Shown: positions 1,563 to 18,674, numbered from the stretch's first letter. The stretch: DNA of 35,361 nt from Candidatus Omnitrophota bacterium (GCA_021158625.1 JAGGUG010000044.1:1-35361); one strand, 5' to 3'. The notes: generated by a model not told the origin, from the sequence alone. Translations and numbers: made by a program.

Positions 1563-1708
1563 CCCTGTTAAATGCCGCTTCGTGGCAATTTCCCTCTGGC
1601 GGAATTATTTAACAGGGTGAACCCAAACAAAAAATAACAAAAAAATGCTTTTAAGTAGTTGTTTTTGGTCATTGGTTATTGTAATTTGGTGCTTGGTGCT
1701 TGGAATTT
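1525..1708. repeat. Two-armed short tandem repeat scar (AAATCAC/AAATTCC left arm, TTGGTGC/TTGG right arm) with a nested palindromic element
   Basis: aaatcacaaattccaaatcacaaacaaattccaat at 1525-1559 and ttggtcattggttattgtaatttggtgcttggtgcttggaattt ending at 1708. Confidence 0.8.
1563..1617. mobile_element. CCCTGTTAA...TTAACAGGG miniature inverted-repeat element (intergenic copy)
   Basis: Perfect 12-bp inverted repeat accctgttaaat / atttaacagggt; same termini as the four intragenic copies. Confidence 0.75.
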
Positions 1709-1741
1709 CTCAACTTTGACGAATGCCAAAGTTGAGTTAAG

Positions 1742-2329
1742 ATGATTTTAGTAATTGATAACTACGATTCCTTTGTTTATAACTTAGTGCAGTATTTAGG
1801 AGAGTTTGAGAAAGAAATTATTGTCCGGCGCAACGATAGGATTAGTCTCGGCGAGATTAGAAAGCTCAAGCCACAGAAGATTGTTCTCTCTCCGGGCCCG
1901 GGAAGACCCGAAGAGGCAGGGATTTGTAAAAGAGTAATAAAGACCTTTAGCAAGGAGATTCCTATTTTAGGGGTTTGCCTGGGCCATCAATGTATTGCCG
2001 AGGCATTTGGTGGGAGGGTAGTCTTGGCGGAAAAGGTAATGCACGGAAAGACCTCTCTGATTTATCATAATCAGAAAGGAATCTTCCGCAATATCCAGAA
2101 TCCCTTTGTTGCCACCCGCTATCACTCCTTGATTGTCCAAAAAGAATCTCTCCCCGATGTTTTAGAGATCATCGCCCAAACCGAGAAAGATGAGATTATG
2201 GGATTAAAACATAGAGACTATCTAACATGGGGTCTCCAGTTTCATCCCGAGTCCATATTGACAAAAGAAGGAAAGAGGATACTGAAGAACTTTCTTAATG
2301 TAAATGAAGCCCAAACTTATGGAGCTTAA
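1742..2329 (+). CDS. trpG: Anthranilate synthase component II / type I glutamine amidotransferase
   Basis: IDNYDSF, SPGPGRP, GVCLGHQ, MHGKTS, RYHSL and QFHPES motifs. Confidence 0.93.
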   Translation: MILVIDNYDSFVYNLVQYLGEFEKEIIVRRNDRISLGEIRKLKPQKIVLSPGPGRPEEAGICKRVIKTFSKEIPILGVCLGHQCIAEAFGGRVVLAEKVMHGKTSLIYHNQKGIFRNIQNPFVATRYHSLIVQKESLPDVLEIIAQTEKDEIMGLKHRDYLTWGLQFHPESILTKEGKRILKNFLNVNEAQTYGA

Positions 2330-2358
2330 GCGAACATAAGTTTGCTGGCTAAATTTAC

Positions 2359-2411
2359 CCAGCACTAATTTTTCAAAGATGTCTTTAACCAAAGCAGAAA
2401 ATTAGTGCTGG
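2359..2411. repeat. CCAGCACTAATTTT...AAAATTAGTGCTGG inverted-repeat element, copy 1
   Basis: Perfect 14-bp IR; the same termini recur at 10517-10616 with a different interior. Confidence 0.8.
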
Positions 2412-2483
2412 ATTCAATTCCACCATACAATTTAGTCTCCTTGCAGTCGCCTAAATTGTGGTGTCATTGAAGGAGGAAGTATT

Positions 2484-3719
2484 ATGCCCAAGATTTATCT
2501 TATTGATGTTACTAATCGTGATGGAGTGCAAACCTCTCGTTTAGGATTGGCAAAATTAGAAAAAACGATGTTGAATATCTTTCTTAACGAAATGGGGATT
2601 TACCAGAGCGAATTTGGCTTTCCAGTAACCAGACACGAAACCAATTACTTAAATGCCAATCTGGAATTGGCAAAGATGGGAGTGCTAAAGCCAATAATTT
2701 TAGAGGGATGGATAAGAGCGATAAGCGAGGATGTCCAGAAGGCAGTTACTTTAACCCGAGTAGAGCATCTCAATCTCTCTATCTCTACTTCTTCGCAAAT
2801 GATTAGGGGCAAGTTCCAGGGGAGAAAGACAAAGAAAGATATTATCCAGATGATGACTGAGGCGGTAGATTTAGCCCGAGAGAAGGGGATAAAGACCATT
2901 GGGGTAAACGCGGAAGACGCCTCGCGCACCCAAAAGGATTATTTAATAGAATTTGCCCTGGCCGCCAAAGAGCACGGAGCAGATAGGATTAGATATTGTG
3001 ATACACTGGGTTATGATAACCCTTTTACCATTTATGAAAGGGTTCGTTTACTGGCCGAGAAGGTTCAGATTCCTATTGAACTGCACTGTCATAATGACCT
3101 GGGAATGGCTGTTGCCTGTTCGGTTGCCGGGGCAAAAGCGGCTATTGATGCCGGCGTAGATGCCTATATAAATACTACCGTAAATGGAATAGGAGAAAGA
3201 GCCGGGAACGCCGATTTGGTTTCCGTGATACTGGCAATCAAATATTCCAGCGGCTTTAAGAATAAGTATATTCTGGATGAGAGGATTGACCTCTCTAGGG
3301 CATGGAAACTGGCTAAGTATGCTGCCTATGCCTTTGGTGTGCCCATACCTGTGAATCAGCCTGGTGTGGGCGCTAATGCCTTTGCTCACGAATCAGGGAT
3401 CCACGCTGATGGGGCACTAAAAGATAGGCGCAATTATGAACTCTATGATTTTGAAGAATTAGGGCGGGGAGAGCCGGAGATTGTAGAAACCGGCCGAAAG
3501 ATAACCGCCGGCGAATACAGTGGCATCAAGGGCTTCCGCAATGTCTATGAGCGACTGGAGATAAAGTTTAAGAACGACAAAGAGGCATCTGATATTTTGG
3601 AATTGGTGCGTTACGCCAATGTGCATACCCAGAAGCCCTTAACCGAAGATGAACTGAAGTTTATCGCCAGATACCCGGACATCGCCAAAAAGATATTTAC
3701 AATGAAACCACTGAATTAA
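2484..3719 (+). CDS. DRE-TIM metallolyase of the homocitrate synthase / Re-citrate synthase type
   Basis: DVTNRDGVQ, AEDASRT, CDTLG, HCHNDLGMA, NGIGERAGNA and FAHESGIHADG motifs; no LeuA regulatory domain; AGGAGG RBS. Confidence 0.85.
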   Translation: MPKIYLIDVTNRDGVQTSRLGLAKLEKTMLNIFLNEMGIYQSEFGFPVTRHETNYLNANLELAKMGVLKPIILEGWIRAISEDVQKAVTLTRVEHLNLSISTSSQMIRGKFQGRKTKKDIIQMMTEAVDLAREKGIKTIGVNAEDASRTQKDYLIEFALAAKEHGADRIRYCDTLGYDNPFTIYERVRLLAEKVQIPIELHCHNDLGMAVACSVAGAKAAIDAGVDAYINTTVNGIGERAGNADLVSVILAIKYSSGFKNKYILDERIDLSRAWKLAKYAAYAFGVPIPVNQPGVGANAFAHESGIHADGALKDRRNYELYDFEELGRGEPEIVETGRKITAGEYSGIKGFRNVYERLEIKFKNDKEASDILELVRYANVHTQKPLTEDELKFIARYPDIAKKIFTMKPLN

Positions 3720-5084
<1,365 letters not shown>

Positions 5085-5120
5085 TAAGAAGGAATTTTTG
5101 CATTCCTTGTAATTCTGTTT

Positions 5121-5792
5121 ATGTTCAAAATAGTTTTAGCCACTAAAAATCTGAATAAAAAAAGAGAAATAGAGGAGATAATTAGATTAAAAGATATTTA
5201 CCCTGTTAAGTCCCCGCCAAGGCGGGGAGCGGCAAAGCCGCTATTTAACGGGGTAAGGTTCTTATCTCTCGCTGATTATCCCTCTTTTCCTGAAATAGAA
5301 GAGGACGGGAAAGATTTTAGAGAGAATGCAATAAAGAAGGCTTTAGCCACGGCCAATTTTACTCAGGAACTTGCTTTGGCTGATGACTCCGGCTTAGAAG
5401 TAGAAGTATTAAAAGGGGAACCGGGAATCCATTCAGCCCGCTTCGCTGGTGAGAAAAAAGACGATAGAGCGAACATCAAAAAACTCTTGGAGCTATTAAA
5501 GGGCGTTCCTCAAGAAAAACGCCAGGCTAAGTTTAGATGCGTGATTGCTCTGGCTAAACCAGGAAGAGTGATTAAAGTAGCAGAAGGGGTTTGTAAAGGG
5601 TTTATTACCTTTGAACCGAAAGGGAATTTTGGCTTTGGGTATGACCCGGTTTTCTTCCTGCCTTCTTATAATAAGACATTTGCGGAGTTGGACCCGCAAA
5701 TAAAAAACCAAATCAGTCATCGAGCAAAGGCGATAGAGAAAATAAACCAATCATTGCAAAATATAAAATTAGCATTGCGAAATGCAAAATGA
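5121..5792 (+). CDS. rdgB: Non-canonical purine NTP pyrophosphatase (RdgB/HAM1) with an in-frame palindromic insert
   Basis: LATKN..K, ADDSGL, PGIHSARF, GFGYDPVF and KNQISHRAKA motifs. Confidence 0.95.
   Translation: MFKIVLATKNLNKKREIEEIIRLKDIYPVKSPPRRGAAKPLFNGVRFLSLADYPSFPEIEEDGKDFRENAIKKALATANFTQELALADDSGLEVEVLKGEPGIHSARFAGEKKDDRANIKKLLELLKGVPQEKRQAKFRCVIALAKPGRVIKVAEGVCKGFITFEPKGNFGFGYDPVFFLPSYNKTFAELDPQIKNQISHRAKAIEKINQSLQNIKLALRNAK
5201..5253. mobile_element. In-frame CCCTGTTAA...TTAACGGGG element in rdgB
   Basis: Encodes PVKSPPRRGAAKPLFNGV; the interior has hairpins ccccgcc-aa-ggcgggg and agcggc-aaa-gccgct. Confidence 0.8.
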
Positions 5793-5847
5793 AAAAACAA
5801 TTCTTAGGATTATTCATTTTAAAGTGCTAATTGATAATTTTGCATTG
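5752..5847. repeat. Two-armed repeat scar (TGCAAAAT ... ATTTTGCA) overlapping the 3' end of rdgB
   Basis: cattgcaaaatataaaattagcattgcgaaatgcaaaatga versus tcattttaaagtgctaattgataattttgcattg. Confidence 0.65.
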
Positions 5848-5851
5848 ATTC

Positions 5852-5929
5852 CGGGATGTAGCGCAGCTTGGTTAGCGCGCCTGGTTTGGGACCAGGAAGT
5901 CGCCAGTTCAAATCTGGCCATCCCGACCA
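5852..5929 (+). tRNA. tRNA-Pro (anticodon UGG)
   Basis: Acceptor CGGGATG/CATCCCG, D stem GCGC/GCGC, anticodon stem CCTGG/CCAGG with loop TTTGGGA, T arm GCCAG-TTCAAAT-CTGGC, discriminator A and encoded CCA. Confidence 0.97.
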
Positions 5930-5948
5930 ATTATTACAACAATATATA

Positions 5949-6599
5949 ATGAAAATAGTAGAAAGACAGAAAGCCATAGAATTAAGAGAGAAAGGTTTGA
6001 CTTATAGTGAGATTAGGCAGCGTTTAGATATCTCTAGGGGTTCCCTTAGTTTATGGTTACACGACATTCCTTTTGTTCTAAGTGAGAGGAGACGTAATAG
6101 ACGAAGACTAGCTAGTTTTCGCAATAGTCAAGTATTACATAAACGGAAAATCCAAAGAGTTTCTCAGATTATGAGAGCAGCAAAAGAAGAGATGCTAAAT
6201 ACAAAACTTGATGAATTAAAGTTGCTTGGAGCTATGGCATATTGGACTGAAGGCTCTAAGACAAGAGACAGCTTAGTAAAAATTACCAATTCTAATCCAG
6301 ACTTTATTAAATTTGTTCTCAAATGGCTGCGAGAAATTTGTGGTGTATCTGAAAAGAAATTACGAGTTCATCTGCGCATACATGGTGATTTAAACAAAAA
6401 AGAAGCAGAGCAATATTGGTCAAAAATAACCGGAATTCCTTTGAATAGATTCTATAAGACAACTTACAAAATAAGTGCTTCTAACGGTAAACGGTATAAT
6501 AAGCTTAAATATGGAATTGCTAGTATAATAGTATGTGACACAAATTTATTCTATAGAATTATGGGATGGATTGAGGGTATGGTCGAAAGGATAAAATAG
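5949..6599 (+). CDS. HTH plus LAGLIDADG-like domain protein (216 aa), tRNA-adjacent
   Basis: N-terminal HTH (KAIELREKGLTYSEIRQRLDISRGSLSLWL); LGAMAYWTEGSK helix followed by ITNSNPDFIKFVLKWL, resembling single LAGLIDADG domains; AT-rich. The start was moved to ATG 5949 because the ORF-track start lies inside the tRNA. Confidence 0.65.
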   Translation: MKIVERQKAIELREKGLTYSEIRQRLDISRGSLSLWLHDIPFVLSERRRNRRRLASFRNSQVLHKRKIQRVSQIMRAAKEEMLNTKLDELKLLGAMAYWTEGSKTRDSLVKITNSNPDFIKFVLKWLREICGVSEKKLRVHLRIHGDLNKKEAEQYWSKITGIPLNRFYKTTYKISASNGKRYNKLKYGIASIIVCDTNLFYRIMGWIEGMVERIK

Positions 6600-6631
6600 A
6601 CTATTCTACTCTTGGGTCTTAAGACAAATAT

Positions 6632-6669
6632 CAGAAAGGTCGGCGGTTCGAATCCGCCCGCCCCGACCA
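6632..6669 (+). pseudogene. Orphan 3' half of a second tRNA (Pro-like)
   Basis: AGGTC variable loop, T arm GGCGG-TTCGAAT-CCGCC, acceptor 3' strand CGCCCCG, A, CCA; no matching 5' half (CGGGGCG...) directly upstream. Confidence 0.8.
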
Positions 6670-6768
6670 TTCCTTGCAGATTTGCGCCGAAGGTGAGATT
6701 TGGTAGAGAATGGACAGGGTCTATTTCGCTTTGAGCAGTTTGCCCGAAGCAAATTGCGTCCTGAGTTT

Positions 6769-7713
6769 ATGCAAAATCTAATTGTTTCCTCTGCTCCCCA
6801 TATTCACTGTCGAGATTCCACAAGGAAGGTAATGTGGTCGGTAGTTGTTGCCTTAATCCCGGCCGGGATTGCCGCCGGCATTTTCTTTGGAATAAGAGCC
6901 TTAGAGATTATCTTTATCTCGGTGGTCTTTGCGGTAGTATTTGAGTTCTTGATCCAGAGACTCAGAAGACAGGAGATTACTGTTCTTGACGGGAGTGCTG
7001 TAATCACCGGGATTCTTTTGGCCTTTACTCTTCCTCCTACTGTTCCGCTCTGGCTGCCGATAGTGGGCGTATTTATCGCCATTGTTTTTGGAAAACAGAT
7101 CTTTGGCGGATTAGGAAATAATATCTTCAATCCAGCATTGGTTGGACGGGCTTTTCTGGTTGCTTCCTGGCCAAATCTGATGAGTAGGTGGGTAGCACCA
7201 TTTAGTTATCGTATGGATGCAGTTACCTCGGCTACGCCCTTAGCGTTAATTAAAGGAAACGAAACAATAAGCGGACATTTTTCTTATTGGAATCTTTTTA
7301 TGGGTAACTGTGCAGGGTGCCTGGGAGAAACCTCGGCTTTGGCTTTGCTATTAGGAGCGGGTTTTCTCTTTTATAAAAGGTATATCACCTGGCATATACC
7401 TCTTACTTATATTCTTAGTGTCGGGTTATTAACCTGGCTCTTGGGCAGAGAGGGTTTATTTAGTGGTGATTTTCTCTATAATATCCTTGCCGGTGGTTTA
7501 ATGTTAGGAGCGTTGTTTATGGCTACCGATATGACCACTACTCCCCTCGCTAATAAAGGAAAACTCATCTTTGGCCTGGGTTGCGGATGTATTACGGCTC
7601 TCATTCGGCTTAAGGGAGGCTATCCAGAGGGAGTTTGTTATTCTATTCTGCTTATGAATGCGTTTACGCCCTTGATTGATAAACTAACCACTAACCGAGC
7701 GCACACTTCATAG
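6769..7713 (+). CDS. rnfD: Rnf electron transport complex subunit D
   Basis: SSAPHIH, KQIFGGLGNNIFNPALVGRAF, DAVTSATPL (FMN site), GETSALALL and FMATD motifs. Confidence 0.95.
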   Translation: MQNLIVSSAPHIHCRDSTRKVMWSVVVALIPAGIAAGIFFGIRALEIIFISVVFAVVFEFLIQRLRRQEITVLDGSAVITGILLAFTLPPTVPLWLPIVGVFIAIVFGKQIFGGLGNNIFNPALVGRAFLVASWPNLMSRWVAPFSYRMDAVTSATPLALIKGNETISGHFSYWNLFMGNCAGCLGETSALALLLGAGFLFYKRYITWHIPLTYILSVGLLTWLLGREGLFSGDFLYNILAGGLMLGALFMATDMTTTPLANKGKLIFGLGCGCITALIRLKGGYPEGVCYSILLMNAFTPLIDKLTTNRAHTS

Positions 7714-7740
7714 CTGGGTTGGTGTAATTTCTGGTTTTAA

Positions 7741-7777
7741 AAGCTTGTAACCTGAAGCTTGTAGCTTGCAGCCTGTA
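7741..7777. repeat. Heptamer-type repeat (GCTTGTA/GCCTG family)
   Basis: aagcttgtaacctgaagcttgtagcttgcagcctgta; a reverse-complement-like copy sits inside argJ at 9962-9996. Confidence 0.6.
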
Positions 7778-7779
7778 AT

Positions 7780-8391
7780 ATGTTTAAAAAAGGACTAATT
7801 TTGGGAATAATTTCTTTTGTTGCCGCTGTTTTGCTTTCGTTTACCTATATCTTAACCAAGCCGATTATTGCCCAACAGAGCTTAAAGAGTGAAGAGGAGG
7901 CTATCTCTGCATTTTTGCCCAATGTAGATAGAATAGAAAAGATAGAAAAGGAAGGAAAGGTTTGCCCCGTTAGAAAAAACCATATTCGTAAAGGTGAGGA
8001 TGACAAAGGGGATTATAAAGAGAGAGAGGGGGAGGATGAGGGTCGTAAGTTTTCTAACGGGGTTTATTATAAATGCTATAGCCAGGGCAAATTAGTCGGT
8101 TATGCACTCATTGCCTCTGCTTCTGGTTACAGCAGTGAAATCAAAGTGATGATAGCCCTGGATAAAGATAAAGTAATAAAAGGAATTAAGATTTTGGAGG
8201 AGAAGGAAACACCGGGATTGGGGTCAAAGATTAGCGATGATTACTTTACAGGACAGTTTAAAGATAAGAAAGCCGGGGAACTAATATTAGGAGAAAGTAT
8301 TGAAGCAATTAGTGGAGCAACTATTTCTTCCAGAGCAGTGATAGAGGCGGTAAAGAAGGAAGTGGAGAGATTTCAAATCGTCAATCGTTGA
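7780..8391 (+). CDS. rnfG: Rnf complex subunit G with an in-frame palindromic insert
   Basis: N-terminal TM segment, GYSSEI, ETPGLG and AISGATISS (FMN-Thr) motifs. Confidence 0.92.
   Translation: MFKKGLILGIISFVAAVLLSFTYILTKPIIAQQSLKSEEEAISAFLPNVDRIEKIEKEGKVCPVRKNHIRKGEDDKGDYKEREGEDEGRKFSNGVYYKCYSQGKLVGYALIASASGYSSEIKVMIALDKDKVIKGIKILEEKETPGLGSKISDDYFTGQFKDKKAGELILGESIEAISGATISSRAVIEAVKKEVERFQIVNR
7965..8062. mobile_element. In-frame CCCCGTTAGAAAA...TTTTCTAACGGGG element in rnfG
   Basis: Perfect terminal IR; encodes PVRKNHIRKGEDDKGDYKEREGEDEGRKFSNGV. Confidence 0.85.
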
Positions 8392-8514
8392 AGGGTAGCG
8401 TAGCTGGAAACGGTAATCGGTTATCGTTGAACGTAAAAAAACGCAACCATCCGATGTCCAATGTTTCGAGTTACGCAACCGATAGACGTAAGACGAAATA
8501 TTAGATTTGGTTTT

Positions 8515-9135
8515 ATGAAAAGGTTCGCAAAAGGCATTTTTAAGGAAAATCCTATCTTTGTTCTGATGATTGGACTCTGCCCGGTGCTGGCAATAACTAC
8601 TTCTGTGGCTAACGGTTTGGGAATGGGATTACCGGTTACTTTTGTGCTTTTGGGTTCAAACACAATTGTTTCTTGTTTAAGAAAGTTTATTCCTTCTGAA
8701 ATAAGACTGCCTTGTTTTATTGTGATTATTGCCTCTTTTGTTACCATTGTTGAACTTTTGCTCAAGGCGTTTTTCCCTGCTCTCAATAGAAGTTTGGGAA
8801 TATTTGTTCCCCTGATTGCTGTGAACTGTATTATATTGGGAAGAGCAGAGGCGTTTGCCTTTAAGAATTCAGTTTTTCAATCTGTTATCGATGCTTTAAC
8901 AGTGGGGGTAGGATTTACTTTTGCTTTGTTGATAATCTCTTTAGTCAGGGAGATTTTGGGTAGCGGAGAGCTCTTTGGCTTTCGCATCCTCCATTTTCAG
9001 CCGGCTCTGTTCTTTGCCTTTCCGGCTGGAGCCTTCTTGATAATCGGAATGTTGATGGGGATACTGAACCTTGGCAAGAATTATACTCGCCCTGCGGGCA
9101 AGTCCCCTAAGCCAAGGTTCAGAAAATTCCAATGA
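8515..9135 (+). CDS. rnfE: Rnf complex subunit E
   Basis: ENPIFVLMIGLCPVLA, LGIFVPLIAVNCIILGRAE and REILGSG motifs; likely start at ATG 8515. Confidence 0.93.
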   Translation: MKRFAKGIFKENPIFVLMIGLCPVLAITTSVANGLGMGLPVTFVLLGSNTIVSCLRKFIPSEIRLPCFIVIIASFVTIVELLLKAFFPALNRSLGIFVPLIAVNCIILGRAEAFAFKNSVFQSVIDALTVGVGFTFALLIISLVREILGSGELFGFRILHFQPALFFAFPAGAFLIIGMLMGILNLGKNYTRPAGKSPKPRFRKFQ

Positions 9136-9243
9136 CCAATTTTCAGATCCCAATGAAATCCCGATTTTCTAAACCCAAAACAGAAGAAAAGATACTTGGG
9201 GTTTGGGATTTGGTTGGGCATTGGGGCTTGGGCATTGAGGTTT
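9123..9243. repeat. Two-armed repeat scar (CCAATGA/CCCAA ... TTGGG/CATTGG)
   Basis: aaattccaatgaccaat...cccaatgaaatccc...aaacccaaa followed by ttggggtttgggatttggttgggcattggggcttgggcattga; same family as 1525-1708. Confidence 0.8.
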
Positions 9244-9253
9244 TTTAAAAGCA

Positions 9254-10465
9254 ATGAAGACAATCTCTAAGAACATAGTCCCTCGAGGATTCAAATTTGC
9301 CGGAATACACTGCGGGATAAAGAGAAAAAAGAAAGATTTAGGGTTGATTTATTCCGATACTCCGGCAGTGGCGGCAGGTCTCTGGACTACTAACAAAATG
9401 CAGGCTGCGCCGATTCAGATATGCAAGAAAAATATCGAGAACAAGATTCAAGCAATAATTGTAAACAGTGGAAACGCCAATTGCGGTTTGCGCCAGGGGA
9501 GGAAAGATGCACTTTTGATAAACGAATGGGTTGGTCGAGAATTAGGGATTAACCAGGAATGTATTCTGCCTGCTTCTACAGGGATTATCGGTATTCCTCT
9601 GCCAATAGATAAGATAAAAAAGAGGGTTTCCTTTTTGGTTAGAGAGTTAAAAGAGGAGAGCGATGATTTTGCCGAGGCAATTCTGACCACCGATAAAGTG
9701 AGCAAACAGGTGGCTTTGGAATTGAAAATAGGGGGTAAAGAGGTTATAATCAGCGGAGTAGCCAAAGGGTCAGGGATGATTTCACCAAAAATGGCAACAA
9801 TGCTCTGTTTTGTTACTACCGATATTGATATTGATAAAGCGCTCCTTAAGGATTGCTTAAAAAAGGCCGTAGAGAATTCATTCAATCAGATTACTATTGA
9901 CGGCGAGATGAGCACCAATGATACAGTCTTATGTCTGGCAAATGGGAGAGCGGGGAATAATAAGCTTCAAGCTGCAGGCCTCAGGCTGCAGGCTGAAAAA
10001 GAAGAAAATAGAAATTTAGAAAAGTTTCAAGAGGGTTTAAATTATGTCACTGCTTATTTGGCAAAGGAGATTGTCAAGGATGGAGAAGGGGCAACTAAGC
10101 TTATTGAAATAGAGGTTCAGGGAGCAAAAAAAGAGGGAGATGCCGAGAAGGTTGCCCGCCGAATTGCCAACTCCAATCTGATTAAAGCAATGTTCTACGG
10201 CGAAAGCACTAATTACGGCAGAATAGCCGCGGCTATCGGCGCTACCGGCGTTGATTTAAAAAATGTGGATATTCATTTAGTCGGCAATAAAAGTAAAATA
10301 AAGATTTTTAAACAAGGATACTTTATAAATGTAGACGAAGGACTCTTAAAAAAAATCTTAGAAGAAAAGGAAATGAAACTAAAGGTAGATTTAAACAAAG
10401 GGAATTTTTCTGAGAAACTCTTGACCTGCGATTTATCCGAGGAGTATGTAAGAATAAATAAATGA
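9254..10465 (+). CDS. argJ: Bifunctional ornithine acetyltransferase / N-acetylglutamate synthase
   Basis: NSGNANC, STGIIG, ILTTD, AKGSGMISPKMATML, STNDT and VKDGEGATK motifs. Confidence 0.96.
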   Translation: MKTISKNIVPRGFKFAGIHCGIKRKKKDLGLIYSDTPAVAAGLWTTNKMQAAPIQICKKNIENKIQAIIVNSGNANCGLRQGRKDALLINEWVGRELGINQECILPASTGIIGIPLPIDKIKKRVSFLVRELKEESDDFAEAILTTDKVSKQVALELKIGGKEVIISGVAKGSGMISPKMATMLCFVTTDIDIDKALLKDCLKKAVENSFNQITIDGEMSTNDTVLCLANGRAGNNKLQAAGLRLQAEKEENRNLEKFQEGLNYVTAYLAKEIVKDGEGATKLIEIEVQGAKKEGDAEKVARRIANSNLIKAMFYGESTNYGRIAAAIGATGVDLKNVDIHLVGNKSKIKIFKQGYFINVDEGLLKKILEEKEMKLKVDLNKGNFSEKLLTCDLSEEYVRINK

Positions 10466-10516
10466 AACTTGGCTTTGCGGAGCAGGAAGTGCTTCGCAAA
10501 TTTGTTAGTTGAATTT

Positions 10517-10616
10517 CCCAGCACTAATTTTCATAGAAAGCAGTGATTATTTTGTCTAAGGTTATAATTCTGTTCAATTCATAGATTAATCTTGTGTCTC
10601 AAAAATTAGTGCTGGG
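10517..10616. repeat. CCCAGCACTAATTTT...AAAATTAGTGCTGGG inverted-repeat element, copy 2
   Basis: Perfect 15-bp IR around a 70-nt AT-rich interior. Confidence 0.85.
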
Positions 10617-10703
10617 TTCCTTGTCTGCCAAAGTCTTGGCGACGGCGGAAATGCGCACAGCAACTTACGTTCACTATTGTTCCGTAAGTTATGAACTTAT
10701 TGA

Positions 10704-11543
10704 ATGAAAAAAATAATTGAAAAAGCCGATGTCTTGATCGAAGCCCTGCCCTATATCAAAAACTTTCGCAACAAAATCTTTGTGGTAAAGTATGGTGGTA
10801 GCGCAATGATGGATAGGGAAAGAGGAAAAACCATTTTACAGGATATTGTGTTTATGAACTATGTGGGTATAAAGGTAATGGTAGTTCACGGTGGTGGGTA
10901 TTTTATCAATCAGAGTTTAAAGAAGAAAGGTAAGCAGTCTAAATTTGCTAACGGATTAAGAGTGACAGACAGGGAGACAATAGAGACAGTGATTTCTACC
11001 CTAAGGAAATTAAACGAGCAGATTGTGGAAGAAATTAAGGGATTAGGAGGAGAATCGGTGGGGGTAAATGGCGAAGATGTTTTTAGAGTGAGTCCCCACA
11101 GGGCAGAGATTGGTTTTGTAGGAGAAGTAGAATCTGTAGATAGCCACGAGATAAACAAACTTTTGGAAGAGAAGAAAATTCCGGTAATTTCTCCCTTAGG
11201 AAAGAATAGCCAGGATGTTTACAATATTAACGCCGACCAGGCCGCTGCTGAGATTAGCTTAGAGCTCAGAGCAGAGAAATTAGTCCTGCTCACCGATGTG
11301 CTCGGGATTTTAGCCGAAGAGAATAAAGAAAGTTCTTTAATCTCCACACTCCATATTAAAGAGGTAAACAGTTTAATTAAAAGAGAAATTGTTACCGGTG
11401 GGATGGTTCCCAAGGTTCAGGCTGGTGTGAAAGCCTTGCAGCACAAGGTAAATAAGGTGCATATTATTGATGGCAGGATAAAACACTCTCTACTTTTGGA
11501 GATATTTACTGACCAGGGAATTGGGACGGAGATAGTAAAATAG
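10704..11543 (+). CDS. argB: Acetylglutamate kinase
   Basis: EALPYI, VVKYGGSAM, VHGGG, GLRVTD, YNINAD, GGMVPK and LLLEIFTDQGIGT motifs. Confidence 0.97.
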   Translation: MKKIIEKADVLIEALPYIKNFRNKIFVVKYGGSAMMDRERGKTILQDIVFMNYVGIKVMVVHGGGYFINQSLKKKGKQSKFANGLRVTDRETIETVISTLRKLNEQIVEEIKGLGGESVGVNGEDVFRVSPHRAEIGFVGEVESVDSHEINKLLEEKKIPVISPLGKNSQDVYNINADQAAAEISLELRAEKLVLLTDVLGILAEENKESSLISTLHIKEVNSLIKREIVTGGMVPKVQAGVKALQHKVNKVHIIDGRIKHSLLLEIFTDQGIGTEIVK

Positions 11544-11618: not shown

Positions 11619-12797
11619 ATGACTACCAAAGAAATCGCCAAACTATATGAAAAGTATGTCCTTCCTACCTATAGCCATCTTCCTTTGGCTTTGGTAAAGG
11701 GAAAAGGGGTTAAGGTCTGGGATGTCCATCAAAGAAAGTATCTTGATTTTTTTTCGGGCTGGGGAGTAAGTAATTTAGGACATTGTCACCCAAGAGTTGT
11801 AAACGCTCTCAAAGACCAGGCAAGAAAACTTCTTCACATTCCCAACAATTACTATGGCCTCTTGCAGGCAAGGTTAGCCCGGGAGATTTCTGAGGCTTCT
11901 TTTGGCGGCAAGGTCTTCTTCTGCAACAGCGGCGCAGAGGCAAACGAAGCGGCGATTAAATTTGCCCGTAAATATGGTAGAGGAGAGAGATATGAGATTA
12001 TCTCAATGCTCAAATCTTTTCACGGAAGAACGCTCGCAACTCTAACCCTGACCGGTCAGGAGAAATATCACTTAGGATATAAACCTTTGCCCAGCGGATT
12101 TAGATATGTTCCTTTTAATGATATCAAAGCAGCTAAGGAGGCAATAAATGAAAAGACAATTGCCATAATCTTAGAGCTCATTCAAGGAGAAGGAGGGGTA
12201 AATATTGCTGATGAGGATTATATAAAAGAATTGCGTCAGATTTGCAGCGAGAAGGATATTTTGTTAATTTTTGACGAAGTGCAAACAGGGATAGGAAGAA
12301 CCGGAAGATTGTTTTGTTATCAACATTACGAAGTAAAGCCGGATGTTATGCTTTTAGCAAAGGGCTTGGGGGGTGGTGTTCCCATTGGAGCAATAGTGGT
12401 AAAAAAGGAGCTCGCCGATATCTTTTCGCCGCATTCGCACGCCTCTACTTTTGGCGGGAATCCCCTGGTATGCAAAGCCGCCTTAGCCGTATTTAAAGCA
12501 ATTAAAAAGGAAAAATTATTAAAAAATGCCGTAGAGATGGGTGCTTATCTAAGAGAAAAATTAGAAGGTTTAAAAAAGAAATATTCTTTTATTAAAGAGG
12601 TTCGCGGGAAGGGCTTGATGTGGGCTGTAGAGTTAAGTATTGAGGGAGGAGAAATTGTCCGGGCCTGCCTTGAGAAGGGCTTGCTTATTAATTGCACCCA
12701 AGATAAAATTTTAAGAATTATGCCTCCCTTGGTGATAAAGAAAAAAGATATTGATAAAGGGCTCGGGATTTTGGATGAAGTCTTAGCAGCTTCTTAG
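11619..12797 (+). CDS. argD: Acetylornithine aminotransferase
   Basis: NSGAEANE, SFHGRT, IQGEGG, FDEVQTG, AKGLGGG and STFGGNP motifs; arg cluster context. Confidence 0.95.
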   Translation: MTTKEIAKLYEKYVLPTYSHLPLALVKGKGVKVWDVHQRKYLDFFSGWGVSNLGHCHPRVVNALKDQARKLLHIPNNYYGLLQARLAREISEASFGGKVFFCNSGAEANEAAIKFARKYGRGERYEIISMLKSFHGRTLATLTLTGQEKYHLGYKPLPSGFRYVPFNDIKAAKEAINEKTIAIILELIQGEGGVNIADEDYIKELRQICSEKDILLIFDEVQTGIGRTGRLFCYQHYEVKPDVMLLAKGLGGGVPIGAIVVKKELADIFSPHSHASTFGGNPLVCKAALAVFKAIKKEKLLKNAVEMGAYLREKLEGLKKKYSFIKEVRGKGLMWAVELSIEGGEIVRACLEKGLLINCTQDKILRIMPPLVIKKKDIDKGLGILDEVLAAS

Positions 12798-12832
12798 CGA
12801 CAAAAATCGAGCCTTTATCCTCCGGGGGTCCT

Positions 12833-13717
12833 ATGAAAAATCTAATTTCTATAAAAGATTTAAGCATTGAGGAAATAGAAAAGATTTTCTCTCTGGCCAA
12901 TGAGATAAAGAAAAAGCCGCACAAATTTAGCCGGTATCTCAAGGGAAAGTCTTTTGCCCTTATTTTTCATAAGCCCTCTTTGAGAACACGGGTGTCCTTT
13001 GAGACCGGGATTTTTCAATTGGGGGCAAAGGCAGTTTACTTAGAGGAAGAGATTGGATTTTCTAAAAGAGAACCGGTGAAGGATATCGCCCGGGTTTTAT
13101 CGCGCTATGTAGATGGGGTTATTATTAGAACATTTTCGCATCAGCTCCTTCTTGATTTTGCTAAGTATAGCACTGCGGCGGTAATAAACGCCCTTACCGA
13201 TTCATTCCACCCCTGCCAGGTTCTCTCAGACCTTTGGACTATCAGAGAAAAAAAAGGTGAATTAAGGAAGGTAAAGATTGCCTATGTTGGCGATGGGAAT
13301 AATGTTTGCAATTCTCTGATTTATGGTTGCCTCAAGACAAAGGCGAATTTACGGATTGCTACTCCTGCGGGATATGAACCGAGGATATCAATCCCCGCTC
13401 AGAACTTAGAAATTAGAATTATGAATGACCCTGAGGAGGCAGTGAAGGATGCCGATATTATCTATACCGATGTCTGGACAAGTATGGGGGAAGAAGGAAG
13501 AGAGGATCGCAAAGAGATTTTTCAAAATTTTCAGGTAAGTAAAAGATTGGTTAATTATGCAAAGCCGGACTGCTTGATTATGCACTGCCTACCTGCCCAT
13601 CGGGGAGAGGAAATCACTGATGAGGTAATTGAGGGGAGAAACTCTATTGTTTTTGAGCAGGCAGAGAATCGCCTTTATGTCCAGAAGGCAATATTAATTT
13701 CATTAGACATACTATAA
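12833..13717 (+). CDS. argF: Ornithine carbamoyltransferase
   Basis: KPSLRTRVSF, HPCQ, GDGNNV, TDVWTSMG, MHCLPAHRG and QAENR motifs. Confidence 0.96.
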   Translation: MKNLISIKDLSIEEIEKIFSLANEIKKKPHKFSRYLKGKSFALIFHKPSLRTRVSFETGIFQLGAKAVYLEEEIGFSKREPVKDIARVLSRYVDGVIIRTFSHQLLLDFAKYSTAAVINALTDSFHPCQVLSDLWTIREKKGELRKVKIAYVGDGNNVCNSLIYGCLKTKANLRIATPAGYEPRISIPAQNLEIRIMNDPEEAVKDADIIYTDVWTSMGEEGREDRKEIFQNFQVSKRLVNYAKPDCLIMHCLPAHRGEEITDEVIEGRNSIVFEQAENRLYVQKAILISLDIL

Positions 13718-13766
13718 AAAATAGGTATGTCCGATGAGATAATCGAAGATTATATCAGGAGAACAG

Positions 13767-14918
13767 ATGAAGAAAGTAGTTTTAGCCTATTCTGGCGGTT
13801 TGGATACCTGTGTCTCTATAAGATGGCTTAGAGATAAGGGCTATGATGTCCTTGCTCTCCTTGCCGATTTAGGACAGAAAGCCAATTTCGAGCTCCTCAA
13901 AAAGAGGGCAATCTCGGCCGGGGCAGAAAAGGTTTATGTCTCTGATTTAAAGAAGGAATTTGTCCAGGATTTTATCCTGCCCAGTTTAAAGGCAGAAGCG
14001 GTTTATGAGGATTATCTTTTAACCACCGCTTTAGGGAGACCTCTAATTGCCAAAGAGGTTGTTAAAATTGCCCACAAAGAAAGAGCAGACTATGTTGCCC
14101 ACGGATGCACCGGGAGAGGAAATGACCAGGTTCGCTTTGAACTCTCCTATAAGATGTTAGACCCTCGTTTAAAGGTTATTGCCCCCTTGCGCGAATGGGA
14201 ATTTAACTCAAGAGAAGAAGAGATTGAGTATGCTAAAAAGAATGGTATTAGTTTGGATCTTAAAAAGAGTGTCTATAGCATTGATGAAAATCTCTGGGGG
14301 GTGAGTATTGAATGCGGAGAATTAGAGGACCCCTATAATGAGCCATCTGCCAATGCCTGGCAGATTGGTGCTCTGAGAGAGATTTCCAAACCTACTTATC
14401 TGGAGATTTATTTTGATAGAGGTATTCCGACTGACCTGAATAATAAAAGGATAGATACCCAGGAGCTAATTGTCAGGCTAAATAAAATAGGTGGAAAATA
14501 CGCTATTGGCAGAAAGGACTTGATTGAAGACAGAATTGTGGGAATTAAATCCCGCGAGCTCTATGAAGCCCCGGCAGCAGAGATTCTTTACAAAGCCCAT
14601 CACGCTTTAGAGAGCCTGATTTTGGATAAACAAACCCTGAATTTCAAGCACCTGATTTCTTTGAAATATGGCGAACTTATTTATAGTGGACTGTGGTTTT
14701 CTACCCTAAGAGAAGCATTAAGCAGATTTGTTGATTTTACCCAGGAGAAGGTGCAAGGGACTGTTCGGATAAAGCTCTCCCCGGGAAATTGCGAGATAGT
14801 CGGTAGGAAATCAAGATATGCTTTGTATAAAAAGGAATTGGCTACCTATGGCAAAGACAGCAAATTTGACCAGAAGGCCGCTGAGGGATTGATAAAGATT
14901 TTGGGAATGGGATATTAG
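13767..14918 (+). CDS. argG: Argininosuccinate synthase
   Basis: LAYSGGLDT, HGCTGRGNDQVRFE, YSIDENLWG and KSRELYEAP motifs. Confidence 0.97.
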   Translation: MKKVVLAYSGGLDTCVSIRWLRDKGYDVLALLADLGQKANFELLKKRAISAGAEKVYVSDLKKEFVQDFILPSLKAEAVYEDYLLTTALGRPLIAKEVVKIAHKERADYVAHGCTGRGNDQVRFELSYKMLDPRLKVIAPLREWEFNSREEEIEYAKKNGISLDLKKSVYSIDENLWGVSIECGELEDPYNEPSANAWQIGALREISKPTYLEIYFDRGIPTDLNNKRIDTQELIVRLNKIGGKYAIGRKDLIEDRIVGIKSRELYEAPAAEILYKAHHALESLILDKQTLNFKHLISLKYGELIYSGLWFSTLREALSRFVDFTQEKVQGTVRIKLSPGNCEIVGRKSRYALYKKELATYGKDSKFDQKAAEGLIKILGMGY

Positions 14919-14978
14919 GAAAGTTGACAGTAGGCAGTTGGTAGTAGGTAACTGTAGATTGACTTCCGGAGGCACAAA

Positions 14979-16361
14979 ATGACTACAAAAAAAATGTGGG
15001 GCGGGAGGTTTAAAAAAAAGACCGATTCGGATGTAGAAAGGTTTACTAAATCAATAGATTATGATTATAAATTAGCTAAATATGATGTATATGGTTCTTT
15101 GTTGCATGTATTCGTATTAAATGCGTGTGGATTTTTAACAAAGGAAGAGGAAAAAAGTATGTCTAATGCTCTTCGTAAGATATATAATGATATTGTAAGT
15201 GGGAAGTTTAAGTATAATAAAAGGAGTGAAGATATTCATACTGATATTCAAAATAAAGTAGAGAAAGAAGTTGGTCCTTTATCTCTGAAACTGCATACAG
15301 CAAGGTCAAGGAATGACCAGGTTCTTTTTGATTTAAAGCTTTTTTGCAGAGATGAATTACTTTATGTTGGGAAATTATGCAAAGAATTGCAGAATTCTAT
15401 ATTGGAAATTTGCGAAGAACATAAAGAAACATTTATTCCCGGCTATACGCATTTGCAGCATGCCCAGATTGTTCGTTTAAAAGATTATTTAGGAAGCTAC
15501 GCCGAGATGTTCAAAAGGGATCTGGATAGATTAGATAATACGAGAGAAAGAATAAGATTGACTTTGGGTTCGGGGGCCCTTGCCGGCACGCCTATTGGTT
15601 CTACTTTGTATCAGGAAATGGCGAAAAAATTTGTTCGGGAACATAAAGAGTTAAAAGAAATTTTCAGCACAGAACATATTGACAAAGTTTCAAATACATT
15701 GGATACGGTTAGCGATAGAGATTTTGTTATTGAAGTTTTATCGGTATTATCAATAATGGGTATGCATTTATCAAGATTTGCCGAGGACCTAATTATTTGG
15801 TCAACAAAGGAATTTGGTTTTGTGGAGATTGATGACGCCTTTGCTACCGGGAGTTCTCTGATGCCCCAGAAGAAAAATCCGGATGTTCTTGAATTAATAA
15901 GGGCCTATACTGGAACCCTGTATGGCAATCTAATGAGCGTTTTGACAATGATGAAAGGACTGCCGCTTACTTATAACCGGGATATGCAGTTGGATAAACC
16001 GCCATTGTTTAGTTCATTTGAAATAATAGAACAAGAGTTAAAAATTTTCCCCAAGCTTATAAAAACACTAAAGTGGAATAAAAAAACTATTGAAAAGGCA
16101 ATAGAAAACGATGAAACCCTGTATGCTACAGACCTTGTTTATTATCTTATCAAAAAGGGTATTGCGTTTAAGCAGGCGCACGACATTATTGGAAAATTGA
16201 TTAAATTTTCTTTAGATAGCAGCAGAAAGATAAAGGAAATGAGCAATATAGAGTTAAAGAGATTTTCTGACAGATTGAAACAGGAAGAGATAGTTAAATT
16301 GCTGGATCCTGAGACATCGGTTAAATCAAGAGAATCGGTTGTTAGAACAAGCAATGTCTAA
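14979..16361 (+). CDS. argH: Argininosuccinate lyase
   Basis: WGGRF, LHTARSRNDQ, PGYTHLQHAQ, GSSLMPQKKNPD and KGLPLTYNRDMQ motifs. Confidence 0.97.
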   Translation: MTTKKMWGGRFKKKTDSDVERFTKSIDYDYKLAKYDVYGSLLHVFVLNACGFLTKEEEKSMSNALRKIYNDIVSGKFKYNKRSEDIHTDIQNKVEKEVGPLSLKLHTARSRNDQVLFDLKLFCRDELLYVGKLCKELQNSILEICEEHKETFIPGYTHLQHAQIVRLKDYLGSYAEMFKRDLDRLDNTRERIRLTLGSGALAGTPIGSTLYQEMAKKFVREHKELKEIFSTEHIDKVSNTLDTVSDRDFVIEVLSVLSIMGMHLSRFAEDLIIWSTKEFGFVEIDDAFATGSSLMPQKKNPDVLELIRAYTGTLYGNLMSVLTMMKGLPLTYNRDMQLDKPPLFSSFEIIEQELKIFPKLIKTLKWNKKTIEKAIENDETLYATDLVYYLIKKGIAFKQAHDIIGKLIKFSLDSSRKIKEMSNIELKRFSDRLKQEEIVKLLDPETSVKSRESVVRTSNV

Positions 16362-17673
16362 TTTTAAATACAAAAGAAATCAACTATACTGCGAGGCTGT
16401 TCCTCTAAAGCAGATTGCTGAGAGCGCAGGGACACCTGTTTATATCTATAGCTATCAAAGTTTAGTTGGTAGATATAAGGAGTTAAAACAAGCATTTGCT
16501 TCTGCTCATCCACTTATCTGCTTTTCGGTAAAAGCAAATTCCAATCTAACAATTTGCAAGGTGCTTAGCGAGCAAGGAGCAGGTCTGGATATTGTTTCCG
16601 GGGGCGAACTTTATCGAGCAAAAAAAATCAAAGTCGATCCCAAAAAGATTGTTTTTGCCGGTGCAGGAAAAACAGAAGAAGAGATAAGAGAGGCGATTAA
16701 AGCAAAGATTTTGCTTATCAATGCCGAATCAGAACAAGAAGTAGAAGAGATTGATAGGATTGCCGGCGAATTAGGAAGGAAGATACGGGTTGGCTTACGG
16801 ATAAATCCTGATGTTCCCGGCGGAGGGCATCGCTATATTCAGACAGCCAAAGAAGAGAATAAATTCGGGATTTCCTTAAAAGAAGCAAAAGAGCTCTTTT
16901 TAAAGAAAGAGAAATTTTCCCATCTGAATATTTGCGGAATTCATTTTCATTTGGGTTCACAGATAACTACACCTCAGCCTTTTGTGAGAGCATTAAAAAA
17001 AATTGTTCCTTTAATCCAGGAACTCAAAAAGAAAGGAGTAGAGATAAGTTATTTAGACATTGGCGGCGGATTTTTTGGAGTGGCTAATAAATTTGCTCGG
17101 GCGATTCTGCCTTTGGTAAAAGGCTTAGAGATAAACCCCGTTAGAAGTAAGTCCCGATTTATGGGGACTGCTCCGGCTGAACATCAGGGGACTTCTAACG
17201 GGGTAAAATTAATATTAGAACCGGGGAGATTCTTGACAGCCGAAAGCGGGATTTTGCTGACCAAGGTGCTTTATATTAAGAAAAGAGAAGAGGGCAAAAG
17301 ATTTATTATTGTAGACGCCGGAATGAACGACTTTATTCGCCCTGCTTTGTATAACGCGTATCACGAGGTTATCCCTGTTGTCCGAAAACCGCTCAACCCT
17401 CAACCCTCAACCCTCAGCGATGTTGTCGGGCCGGTTTGTGAAAGTGGAGATTTCTTTGCCAAAGACAGAAATTTACCTTTGCTAAAAAGCGGAGACTTTT
17501 TGGCAGTAATGGAGAGTGGAGCCTATGGATTTGTAATGGCTTCTAATTACAACTCCCGTCCCCGCCCGGCTGAAATTTTAGTAAAAGAAGATAAATTTTA
17601 TCTGATTCGGGAAAGAGAAAGATATAGAGATTTAATCCGTGGAGAGTTAACTATGGAGGGTAGCCCTCCATAG
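16354..17673 (+). CDS. lysA: Diaminopimelate decarboxylase with two in-frame repeat inserts
   Basis: SVKANSN, DIVSGGEL, KFGI, HFHLGSQ, EPGR, GPVCESGD and MASNYNSRPR motifs; likely ATG 16354 overlaps the argH stop. Confidence 0.96.
   Translation: MSNFKYKRNQLYCEAVPLKQIAESAGTPVYIYSYQSLVGRYKELKQAFASAHPLICFSVKANSNLTICKVLSEQGAGLDIVSGGELYRAKKIKVDPKKIVFAGAGKTEEEIREAIKAKILLINAESEQEVEEIDRIAGELGRKIRVGLRINPDVPGGGHRYIQTAKEENKFGISLKEAKELFLKKEKFSHLNICGIHFHLGSQITTPQPFVRALKKIVPLIQELKKKGVEISYLDIGGGFFGVANKFARAILPLVKGLEINPVRSKSRFMGTAPAEHQGTSNGVKLILEPGRFLTAESGILLTKVLYIKKREEGKRFIIVDAGMNDFIRPALYNAYHEVIPVVRKPLNPQPSTLSDVVGPVCESGDFFAKDRNLPLLKSGDFLAVMESGAYGFVMASNYNSRPRPAEILVKEDKFYLIRERERYRDLIRGELTMEGSPP
17136..17203. 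mobile_element. In-frame CCCCGTTAGAAGT...ACTTCTAACGGGG element in lysA
   Basis: Perfect 13-bp IR flanked by TAAA on both sides; encodes PVRSKSRFMGTAPAEHQGTSNGV. Confidence 0.88.
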
Positions 17674-17684
17674 TTAATTAAGAA

Positions 17685-18674
17685 ATGCAGAGAATAAATT
17701 TCGTAAAAGCAGTTGCTTCGGGGAATGATTTTATAATTATTGATGCTACTCGCTACCCGCTACCCGCTACCCGTCTTTATAAAAAACTTGCTAAAGAACT
17801 TTGTAAAAGGAAATTTGGAATTGGCGCAGATGGACTCTTATTAGTTGAGCCCTCTCAGAAGGCAGATTTCAGGATGCGCATTTTTAATCCTGACGGCAGC
17901 GAAGCCGAGATGTGCGGGAATGGAGCGCGCTGTGCGGCACTACACGCTACACGCAAAAGAACACAAGAAAAAAAAATAAAAATAGAGACGAAGGCAGGAA
18001 TTGTAGAGGCGGAAATTCAAACCCGCTACCCGCAAAATATAAAGATAAAAATGCCGCAACCTAAAAATTTTAAACTTGATATTCCTCTAAAAATTGACAA
18101 CAAAAGCATATCAGTGAGTTTTGTTAATCTCGGTGTCCCACACGCAGTCGTCTTTGTTAAAAATTTAGAAAAAGTTGATGTTCAGAATTTGGGCAGAAAG
18201 ATTCGCGAGCATCAAGAATTTCAGCCCGAGGGAACAAATGTTAATTTCGTCCAGGTATTGACTGGCGAGACTGTCCGCATCAGGACTTACGAGCGTGGCG
18301 TAGAGGAGGAGACGCTTTCTTGCGGCACGGGGAGCGTAGCCGCTGCGATTATCGCAGAGCGCAAAGCGCAGAGCACAAAGCGCAAACTACCCCGAACAGC
18401 CCCGAACAGCCCCGAAGGGCAAGCCTACGGGGCAGGCAAGACTACGGGACAGGCAGAGCACAAAATCAACCCCGTGGGAAATTTTGCTAAGAACTCTCTG
18501 AATTCCAAAGGTGTATCTCACATAGCAAAGGTGATTTCTAAGAGGGTCAATGTGCACACACAAGGAGAAATATTAAAGGTTTATCTCGATGAGCAATTGA
18601 AGGATGTGTATTTAGAAGGAGAGGCGAGGATTATTTATTTTGGCAGTATAGTTAACGCAACAAAACAAGTCTGA
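17685..18674 (+). CDS. dapF: Diaminopimelate epimerase with multiple in-frame repeat inserts
   Basis: GNDF, GIGADG, NPDGSEAEMCGNG, GVPH, GTNVNF and YERGVEEETLSCGTG motifs. Confidence 0.96.
   Translation: MQRINFVKAVASGNDFIIIDATRYPLPATRLYKKLAKELCKRKFGIGADGLLLVEPSQKADFRMRIFNPDGSEAEMCGNGARCAALHATRKRTQEKKIKIETKAGIVEAEIQTRYPQNIKIKMPQPKNFKLDIPLKIDNKSISVSFVNLGVPHAVVFVKNLEKVDVQNLGRKIREHQEFQPEGTNVNFVQVLTGETVRIRTYERGVEEETLSCGTGSVAAAIIAERKAQSTKRKLPRTAPNSPEGQAYGAGKTTGQAEHKINPVGNFAKNSLNSKGVSHIAKVISKRVNVHTQGEILKVYLDEQLKDVYLEGEARIIYFGSIVNATKQV
18470..18546. mobile_element. Degenerate in-frame CCCCGT...GGG element in dapF
   Basis: ccccgtgggaaat ... atttctaagaggg flanked by TCAA on both sides; encodes PVGNFAK...ISKRV. 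Confidence 0.7.

Follow-up and report, generated by a model that had tools for sequence, protein, structure and literature searches.

What are the five short sequences with shared ends that stand in a 35,361-nucleotide (nt) stretch of DNA from a Candidatus Omnitrophota bacterium (GCA_021158625.1 JAGGUG010000044.1:1-35361), four of them inside housekeeping genes that they lengthen without breaking the reading frame, and what moves them? This whole stretch is called the window below. The five sequences run from CCC(C/T)GTTA to TAAC(G/A)GGG, and the evidence makes it probable that they are gene-less derivatives, that is, inverted-repeat transposable elements of miniature size (MITEs), of a tiny hairpin-ended element whose gene encodes a GIY-YIG nuclease, filtered by selection to insertions that are in frame and free of stop codons. 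The five copies and the four genes that contain them are as follows, families A and B being defined by their ends.

1563-1617, no strand assigned: family-A gene-less copy of 55 nt between trpE and trpG, belonging to a 55-member hairpin-module cluster.
5121-5792, plus strand: rdgB (XTP/dITP diphosphatase), host gene; curated family model RdgB, 1.9e-75.
5201-5253, plus strand: family-A copy of 53 nt in rdgB, read as PVKSPPRRGAAKPLFNGV.
7780-8391, plus strand: rnfG, host gene; curated family model RnfG, 9e-32.
7965-8062, plus strand: family-B copy of 98 nt in rnfG, read as PVRKNHIRKGEDDKGDYKEREGEDEGRKFSNGV.
16339-17673, plus strand: lysA (diaminopimelate decarboxylase), host gene; curated family model LysA, 1e-142.
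17136-17203, plus strand: family-B copy of 68 nt in lysA, read as PVRSKSRFMGTAPAEHQGTSNGV and flanked on either side by TAAA.
17685-18674, plus strand: dapF (diaminopimelate epimerase), host gene; curated family model DapF, 3.1e-79.
18470-18546, plus strand: degenerate family-B copy of 77 nt in dapF, read as PVGNFAKNSLNSKGVSHIAKVISKRV and flanked on either side by TCAA.

A preliminary description of this DNA had reported five copies with these ends, and all of them are present in the sequence at these positions, the ends of the dapF copy being degenerate (CCCCGTGGGA...TCTAAGAGGG). The octamer CCCYGTTA was found 8 times in the window where 1.77 occurrences were expected, and none of 100 shuffled sequences reached 8. 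All four coding copies are 2 mod 3 in length, so that length plus 4 is divisible by 3, and all start at codon position 3; the peptides of the rdgB, rnfG and lysA copies read xPV...NGV and that of dapF ends in KRV, as had been described. Their four-nucleotide flanks are TAAA/TAAA in lysA, TCAA/TCAA in dapF, TTTG/TTTA in rnfG and TTTA/TAAG in rdgB, and those of the intergenic copy are TTGA/TGAA; the TTGA flank of the latter supplies the stop codon of trpE (1560-1562).

Comparison with relatives showed that the coding copies are insertions. The genome that contains the window (G000) is a 1.18-Mb assembly in 128 contigs and is 90% complete. Among its relatives, G001 belongs to the same genus with about 80% identical DNA, and G002 is 94-97% identical in blocks near the insertion site in the phosphoenolpyruvate carboxykinase (PEPCK) gene. 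None of the four coding copies is present in G001, and the window exceeds it by 57 nt in rdgB, 102 nt in rnfG, 72 nt in lysA and 81 nt in dapF, where G001 has a single TCAA. The rdgB, rnfG and lysA sites are also empty in G003, that of lysA in G004 as well, and the 24-residue insert of LysA, which stands just ahead of a conserved motif, ILEPGR, between residues 246 and 274 of chain 2p3e_A, is present in 0/11 aligned LysA orthologues. Copies on other contigs gave the same picture: the gatA copy adds a net 84 nt and is missing from G001, the PEPCK copy adds 60 nt and is missing from G001 and G002, and the copy in the uracil-DNA glycosylase (UDG) gene adds 66 nt and is missing from G001. At all seven coding sites with an empty relative (rdgB, rnfG, lysA, dapF, gatA, PEPCK and UDG) the site is clean and the difference is the length of the element plus 4 nt, so that the outcome named beforehand as refuting, orthologues with no clean empty site, did not occur. 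This 4-nt gain and the absence of the PEPCK copy from the 94-97% identical G002, by which the element was recently mobile, agree with the earlier proposal of an active, non-autonomous, multi-copy element.

Some orthologous sites are occupied in both genomes by copies with different interiors. At the rdgB site, the 53-nt copy of G000 has as its counterpart in G002 a variant of 59 nt whose first hairpin differs; the nusB site (G000:C55:10115-10164) has 50 nt in G000 and 59 nt in G001; and a site of a further family, C (G000:C45:3565-3616), has 52 nt against 119 nt in the relative, all three pairs having the same ends and other interiors. These differences could have arisen by renewed insertion at a hot spot or by conversion from one copy to another.

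The target was examined across the genome. Allowing one mismatch per 10-nt end, a census of G000 gave 156 copies, or 157 with the degenerate dapF copy added by hand; 88 pairs have perfect ends, and a control with the reversed pattern gave 0. Among the 156 copies, T stands at position -4 in 126 and A at position -1 in 122, with the other side as a mirror image. The two 4-nt flanks are identical in 37/156 copies against 11.7 expected (0/2000 permutations), and inverted flanks showed no enrichment in the same 156 copies (12 against 17.6 expected). A TNNA target with a true duplication, as the preliminary description had suggested, is therefore statistically supported. At individual sites the suggestion holds only in part: in dapF, rnfG, lysA and gatA the flanks in G000 match each other and the single 4-mer of the relative with at most one mismatch, which makes 4/7 of the sites compared. 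Together with the clean empty sites this is the target duplication expected of a MITE.

The earlier frame observation in four genes extends to the whole genome. Counting as in-ORF those copies that are spanned by an open reading frame (ORF) no shorter than 120 codons, with 20 or more codons on either side, 40 copies, that of dapF included, lie in genes, and 33 of the 36 outside the window are in ORFs with Pfam domains. Host genes include rpoB, dnaE, gatA, dxs, lpxB, ftsA, ftsQ, alr, pnp and pth, together with nusB, atpG, holB, mnmA, PEPCK, Fe-hydrogenase, proC, comEC and uracil-DNA glycosylase. The length is of the form 3n+2 in 36/40 in-ORF copies and in 74/117 of the others (Fisher p 0.0012). 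The four in-ORF exceptions are on C82 and C107 (probably mis-paired ends), C17 (a mismatched end) and C113 (an ORF without a domain). The bias is partly intrinsic to the family, since it is seen outside ORFs too: 110/157 copies are 3n+2 and 35 are exactly 56 nt long. The reading phases of the in-ORF copies are distributed 28/12/0, the phase with no copies being that in which the ends give a TAA or TAG (this unused phase was scored as closed (sic) in 0/140 orientations of non-ORF copies). All in-ORF copies are free of stop codons. Long open frames cover about 85% of the genome and only 25% of the copies lie in them, so coding insertions have been strongly filtered: copies persist in genes only if the element plus 4 nt is a multiple of 3, the stop-bearing frame of the ends is avoided and the interior has no stop. 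Interiors did not appear to be pre-adapted to stay open, as non-ORF 3n+2 copies are open in 101/140 cases in phase 1 and 62/140 in phase 2, against 54% and 52% after shuffling, which is no clear signal.

Copies range from 29 to about 120 nt, and those in ORFs, when translated, correspond to loops of 19-34 residues that read xPV...NGV in the commoner frame. The frame statistics thus favour the earlier view that reading through the element would add peptide loops to enzymes. An RNA-library contig of 159 nt (depth 2.5) runs from the second base of the lysA element into the downstream part of lysA. No transcript joint that skips the lysA element was seen in the contigs of four runs, although contigs cannot reveal rare forms.

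Copies occur in and beside structural RNA genes. The 23S rRNA gene (G000:C127:1-3017) covers Rfam model positions 1-2495 in 3017 nt, a surplus of about 520 nt, and includes mini hairpins of family C at 1422-1455 and 2021-2054 and a 115-nt copy of family B at 2738-2852, like intervening sequences. Three family-C copies abut the 3' ends of tRNA genes to the base (C82:3746-3797, Glu; C82:4313-4364, Gln; C61:2217-2268, Gln).

The ends are the terminal inverted repeats of a MITE, with arms of 10-13 nt, and the two arms covary, with agreement in 132 of the 156 copies at position 4 and in 151 at position 9. Folded as single strands of DNA, the intergenic (z -3.9), rdgB (z -4.4) and lysA (z -5.8) copies form a terminal stem with two small hairpins, the rnfG copy into the terminal stem only (z -2.1), and the fold of the dapF copy is no better than that of shuffled sequences (z -0.39). 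Weaker hairpins in coding copies were looked for and not seen, the coding copies being slightly stronger (p 0.04). The lysA copy is also present, with better hairpins, in contigs from three other studies; in one of them, 10/27 differences fall within the 68-nt element and, read by hand, these letters restore two perfect 6-bp hairpins and replace the terminal pair C1-G68 with T1-A68, a compensatory change.

Concerning the interiors, those of the 157 copies form 72 clusters, which are sub-families or shuffled GC hairpin modules of 5-7 bp. The preliminary description had held the interiors to be unrelated and had read them as captured cargo. The shared termini stand, but not all interiors are unrelated, because the intergenic copy and that of rdgB are built on one architecture of hairpin modules and belong to a common cluster of 55 members with interchangeable 5-7-bp GC hairpins. 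The lysA interior has one module in common with one other copy, and those of rnfG and dapF are singletons with no match elsewhere in the genome. A search for the source of the interiors found none elsewhere in the genome, and capture of host sequences as variable cargo was rejected.

Which gene could mobilise such elements? Based on a PF01541 search of G000, there are four small stand-alone GIY-YIG genes (E 3e-11 to 3e-17), a fifth match being UvrC. Inverted ends enclose all four, and for each of these sets of ends there is a gene-less family that has it too, so that the longer cognate with the same ends expected of a MITE is present in this genome for families A to D. These full-length units measure 256-291 bp and consist of 13-16-bp inverted ends starting (A)CCC and a single gene, the product of which has 77-85 residues and is a single domain that PF01541 covers over nearly its whole length. 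The four units are as follows.

G000:C32:576-844: family-A unit, ends CCCTGTTAAATAA, 85-residue protein.
G000:C9:3432-3718: family-B unit, ends CCCCGTTAGAAATT, frameshifted ORF, TTCG on both sides.
G000:C67:6304-6559: family-C unit, ends CCCAGCACTAATTTT, about 50 gene-less copies, of which the window has two.
On contig C106: family-D unit, ends CCCCCACACCAATT, a few gene-less copies.

In the C32 unit the GIY-YIG ORF starts 14 nt inside the left end, runs through the right end and takes its TGA stop from the flanking DNA. The search for longer copies with a mobilising enzyme, which had been suggested for these elements, has thus turned up full-length units, and by their arrangement the GIY-YIG nuclease is most probably the mobilising gene product.

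The link between ends and nuclease genes is not confined to this genome. A profile of the three intact nucleases matched in 114/121 sampled Omnitrophota genomes, and flanking inverted ends scoring at least 11 were present at 21/30 of the Omnitrophota loci fetched. At the best 80 loci of a species-wide genome collection, which belong to Patescibacteria, Planctomycetota, Bacteroidota, Ignavibacteriota, Chlorobiota, Cloacimonadota, Bdellovibrionota and others, such ends were found in 45/80, against 0/80 in a shifted-window control, and the ends recurring across phyla are ACCCCGTTAGAGA, ATCCCGTTAGAGA or ACCCTGTTAAA. On a tree of 64 nucleases, a quick, short and weakly resolved one that took in only rows with clear ends, the end class requires 11 changes against 24.1 in shuffles (0/500), and the host phylum requires 27 changes against 27.7. 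Because the end class follows the nuclease tree and the host phylum does not, gene and ends travel across phyla as one unit, of roughly 280 bp. No homologue was found in phages at E <= 1e-8. G004 has no GIY-YIG match and one pair of ends, and its four relatives have 34-88 pairs.

Other mobilising enzymes were sought in G000. Genes of the DDE_Tnp_1 and DDE_3 families were not found there, and its one rve gene is without these ends. A gene for a Y1 transposase resembling the REP-associated tyrosine transposases (RAYT; REP, repetitive extragenic palindrome) was located at G000:C47:9376-9648 on the minus strand, with its own palindrome ATTCCAAACCCGCATTGGAAT on both sides and no AB-type ends nearby; gene and palindrome are a second, independent hairpin-repeat system of this genome. 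Mobilisation by RAYT or DDE enzymes was rejected for these reasons.

We propose that the nuclease would act in trans, recognising the stem formed by the two ends, probably on single-stranded DNA if the analogy with the Ssn nucleases considered below holds, and cutting at the base of the stem. The excised or copied hairpin would then enter a T-N-N-A site with a net gain of the element plus 4 nt. Most landings would hit genes, because about 85% of the genome is coding, and the frame filter would follow.

Several observations weigh against this proposal. At three of the seven sites with an empty relative there is no simple duplication: the flanks in G000 are TTTA/TGAA in UDG, TTTA/TAAG in rdgB and TTTA/TAAA in PEPCK, and the relatives have TTTA, CGGA and CCAA, respectively. 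One idea is that 4-nt ends derived from the donor travel with the element. An empty site for a full-length unit was sought, and the flanks of the C32 and C9 units gave no orthologous match in G001-G003. The full-length copy of family B is frameshifted, though family B is abundant; GIY-YIG ends of the G001 and G003 types showed no gene-less expansion; and phylum-wide the association is weak, with AB-type pairs in 41/114 genomes that have the nuclease and in 1/7 without it. The solved structures nearest to these nucleases are the UPF0213 proteins BH0048 (2e-10) and EF2693, which bears on their placement with Ssn. To our knowledge GIY-YIG enzymes hydrolyse DNA and none joins strands; integration would therefore need host repair or ligation. 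Translation of the inserts is suggested by the frame statistics and by a single RNA-library contig that may be DNA carry-over.

Some of these points would suit a different enzyme. The hairpins might be moved by a recombination pathway or by a transposase, whether of the host or left out of the assembly, with the GIY-YIG gene carried in the loop of some copies as a passenger or having invaded them secondarily. We think this unlikely, although the absence of strand-transfer chemistry from GIY-YIG nucleases is established knowledge, a transposase could be missing from an assembly that is 90% complete in 128 contigs, the family-B nuclease gene is broken and nuclease units with other ends have not expanded as gene-less copies. 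A passenger would not be expected to be bracketed in 4/4 cases by the inverted ends of repeat families, nor at 45/80 loci of other phyla against 0/80 controls, with an end class that follows the nuclease tree; and the candidates sought in its place were either not found (DDE_Tnp_1, DDE_3) or have other ends (Y1, rve). We rate slightly lower still the chance that the elements serve the host, as signals that control incoming single-stranded DNA, like NTS and SsnA in Neisseria, or as transcript hairpins, spread by recombination and tolerated as by-products in coding sequences. The part in transformation, at the host level, that PMC11893778 demonstrated for NTS/SsnA gives this some footing, as do the 117/157 copies that lie outside ORFs and the different interiors at one site in relatives, which recombination between copies could produce. 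It fits poorly with the gain of element plus 4 nt at unrelated sites in conserved enzymes, with the excess of identical flanking 4-mers, with a nuclease tree decoupled from the host phylum and with insertions within rpoB, dnaE and the 23S rRNA gene.

The remaining explanation concerns the coding copies, which might be removed after transcription or translation in the manner of introns or inteins and leave the enzymes unchanged. Strong hairpin folds could be RNA-processing sites and the RNA-library contig begins at the second base of the lysA element; the same contig, however, continues from the element into downstream lysA, and no features of inteins or introns were found. Removal needs no frame rule, yet 36/40 in-ORF copies are 3n+2, all are stop-free and the stop-bearing frame is unused. 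On account of this rule the intron or intein reading was rejected, and we give it very little credence. Derivation of the five copies from a GIY-YIG element, with selection on frame, is the explanation that we retain.

The published system closest to these units is that of Ssn nucleases and SRM repeats. As described in the parts of the article drawn on here (Chenal et al. 2025, PMC11893778), Ssn proteins are single-domain GIY-YIG nucleases of about 90 residues, assigned to CDD cd10448 (GIY-YIG_unchar_3), that cut single-stranded DNA beside hairpin repeats; NTS/SRM repeats flank their own ssn genes and reach tens to hundreds of genomic copies, of which 2% of NTS are inside genes; and the authors likened the NTS-ssnA-NTS layout to an insertion sequence and compared it with REP/RAYT. 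The units described here share the single-domain GIY-YIG protein and the position of its gene between inverted repeats that are abundant in the genome. They differ in that the gene is placed between two half-sites of one palindrome and not between complete hairpins; in their CCCYGTTARA ends, which by eye do not fit the SRM search sequence and the motif strings of which are absent from 10 supplement files of PMC11893778; in the 4-nt gain at TNNA and the empty sites, which do not appear in the portions of that article compared; and in that a quarter of the copies are in genes, in frame. Omnitrophota, Patescibacteria and Planctomycetes are absent from the text and searched supplements of PMC11893778, and Rickettsia is among the SRM-rich genomes that it lists. 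In the literature searched, from which supplements of bioRxiv preprints were left out, the end motif is undescribed and there is no GIY-YIG-bearing inverted-repeat element besides that of PMC11893778.

For insertion in frame, the closest parallel is that of the Rickettsia palindromic elements (RPE), which, in the sections of PMC10969869 used here, count 44 insertions in R. conorii, measure about 150 bp, with a conserved interior of about 100-150 bp, and encode a conserved peptide in each family. Both kinds are palindromic repeats that keep the frame of the unrelated metabolic genes they enter and are read as peptides, here in 40 in-ORF copies. Unlike RPE, the elements in G000 conserve only about 10 nt per end, are 29 to about 120 nt long and have 72 interior clusters. 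Those sections of PMC10969869 name no mobilising gene for RPE, and no paper found links RPE to GIY-YIG.

The elements also resemble REP and BIME repeats with their RAYT, in that short hairpin repeats flank the gene of their own cognate enzyme. The enzyme here is a GIY-YIG protein and not a tyrosine (Y1, HUH) transposase, the one RAYT-like gene of G000 has a different REP, and the copies are partly in genes whereas REPs are extragenic. Shared ends with varied interiors are known from the dRS3-bounded mosaic elements of Neisseria. In comparison with GIY-YIG homing endonuclease genes (I-TevI, Seg), the units have no joined DNA-binding domain and enter unrelated sites with a 4-nt gain instead of homing into a cognate allele. 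With the classical bacterial MITEs (Correia, Nezha, Chunjie and others), as covered in the part of PMC10969869 consulted, the elements have in common their small size, high copy number, inverted ends, target duplication and a longer cognate with the same ends, but what the cognate here encodes is not of any known transposase family, and its own length is below 300 bp.

The window contains further repeats around these elements, listed here.

1508-1738, no strand assigned: intergenic repeat block, composite and palindromic, of about 230 nt and with heptamer-like arms, which encloses the copy at 1563-1617.
2358-2412, no strand assigned: intergenic family-C gene-less copy with ends CCCAGCACTAATTT, which match those around the GIY-YIG gene G000:C67:6304-6559.
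10517-10616, no strand assigned: intergenic family-C copy of 100 nt, of this sister family.
18353-18455, plus strand: in dapF, three short tandem arrays that keep the frame and lie immediately upstream of the element, from which they are separate.

The block at 1508-1738 recurs many times in G000, G002 and G003, and G002 has 17 nt in its place. Spacer repeats at 9124-9255, 10445-10531, 10600-10720 and 2343-2476 recur dozens of times in G001-G003; most intergenic spacers of the window are repeats, and the non-coding DNA of this lineage is largely a repeat mosaic. The dapF arrays have periods of 7/14, 10 and 17 nt where G001 has (AATGGCA)x5, and their site is a hypervariable microsatellite within a housekeeping enzyme; with the element included, the window is 159 nt longer than G001 between the last aligned dapF blocks. 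Compared with the window, G002 is missing 180 nt within rdgB (5501-5680) and 466 nt of the next ORF (5998-6463), with flanks 97% identical. These gaps are a deletion or an assembly artefact, unconnected to the elements.

It is possible, and we offer this tentatively, that the five copies are working members of an undescribed class of transposable elements. At about 270-290 bp these would be the smallest self-contained ones known, their sole protein being an Ssn-like GIY-YIG nuclease that acts on the hairpin ends of its own element, and would cross phyla freely; their gene-less copies would seed new surface loops in essential proteins, as in rpoB, dnaE, gatA and lysA, and rRNA inserts, and the in-frame elements of Rickettsia may belong to the same class. 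If the nuclease link is true, in-frame palindromic elements would gain a candidate mobilising enzyme, a question open since the Rickettsia elements were described, and nucleases of the Ssn type would gain a role in mobile elements with a defined target and boundaries. The cognate nuclease-and-end pairs are candidates for use as sequence-specific tools on single-stranded DNA. About 3% of the genes of this small genome carry a random-looking loop of 16-40 residues, and the relatives with and without each of them constitute a natural experiment in protein evolution.

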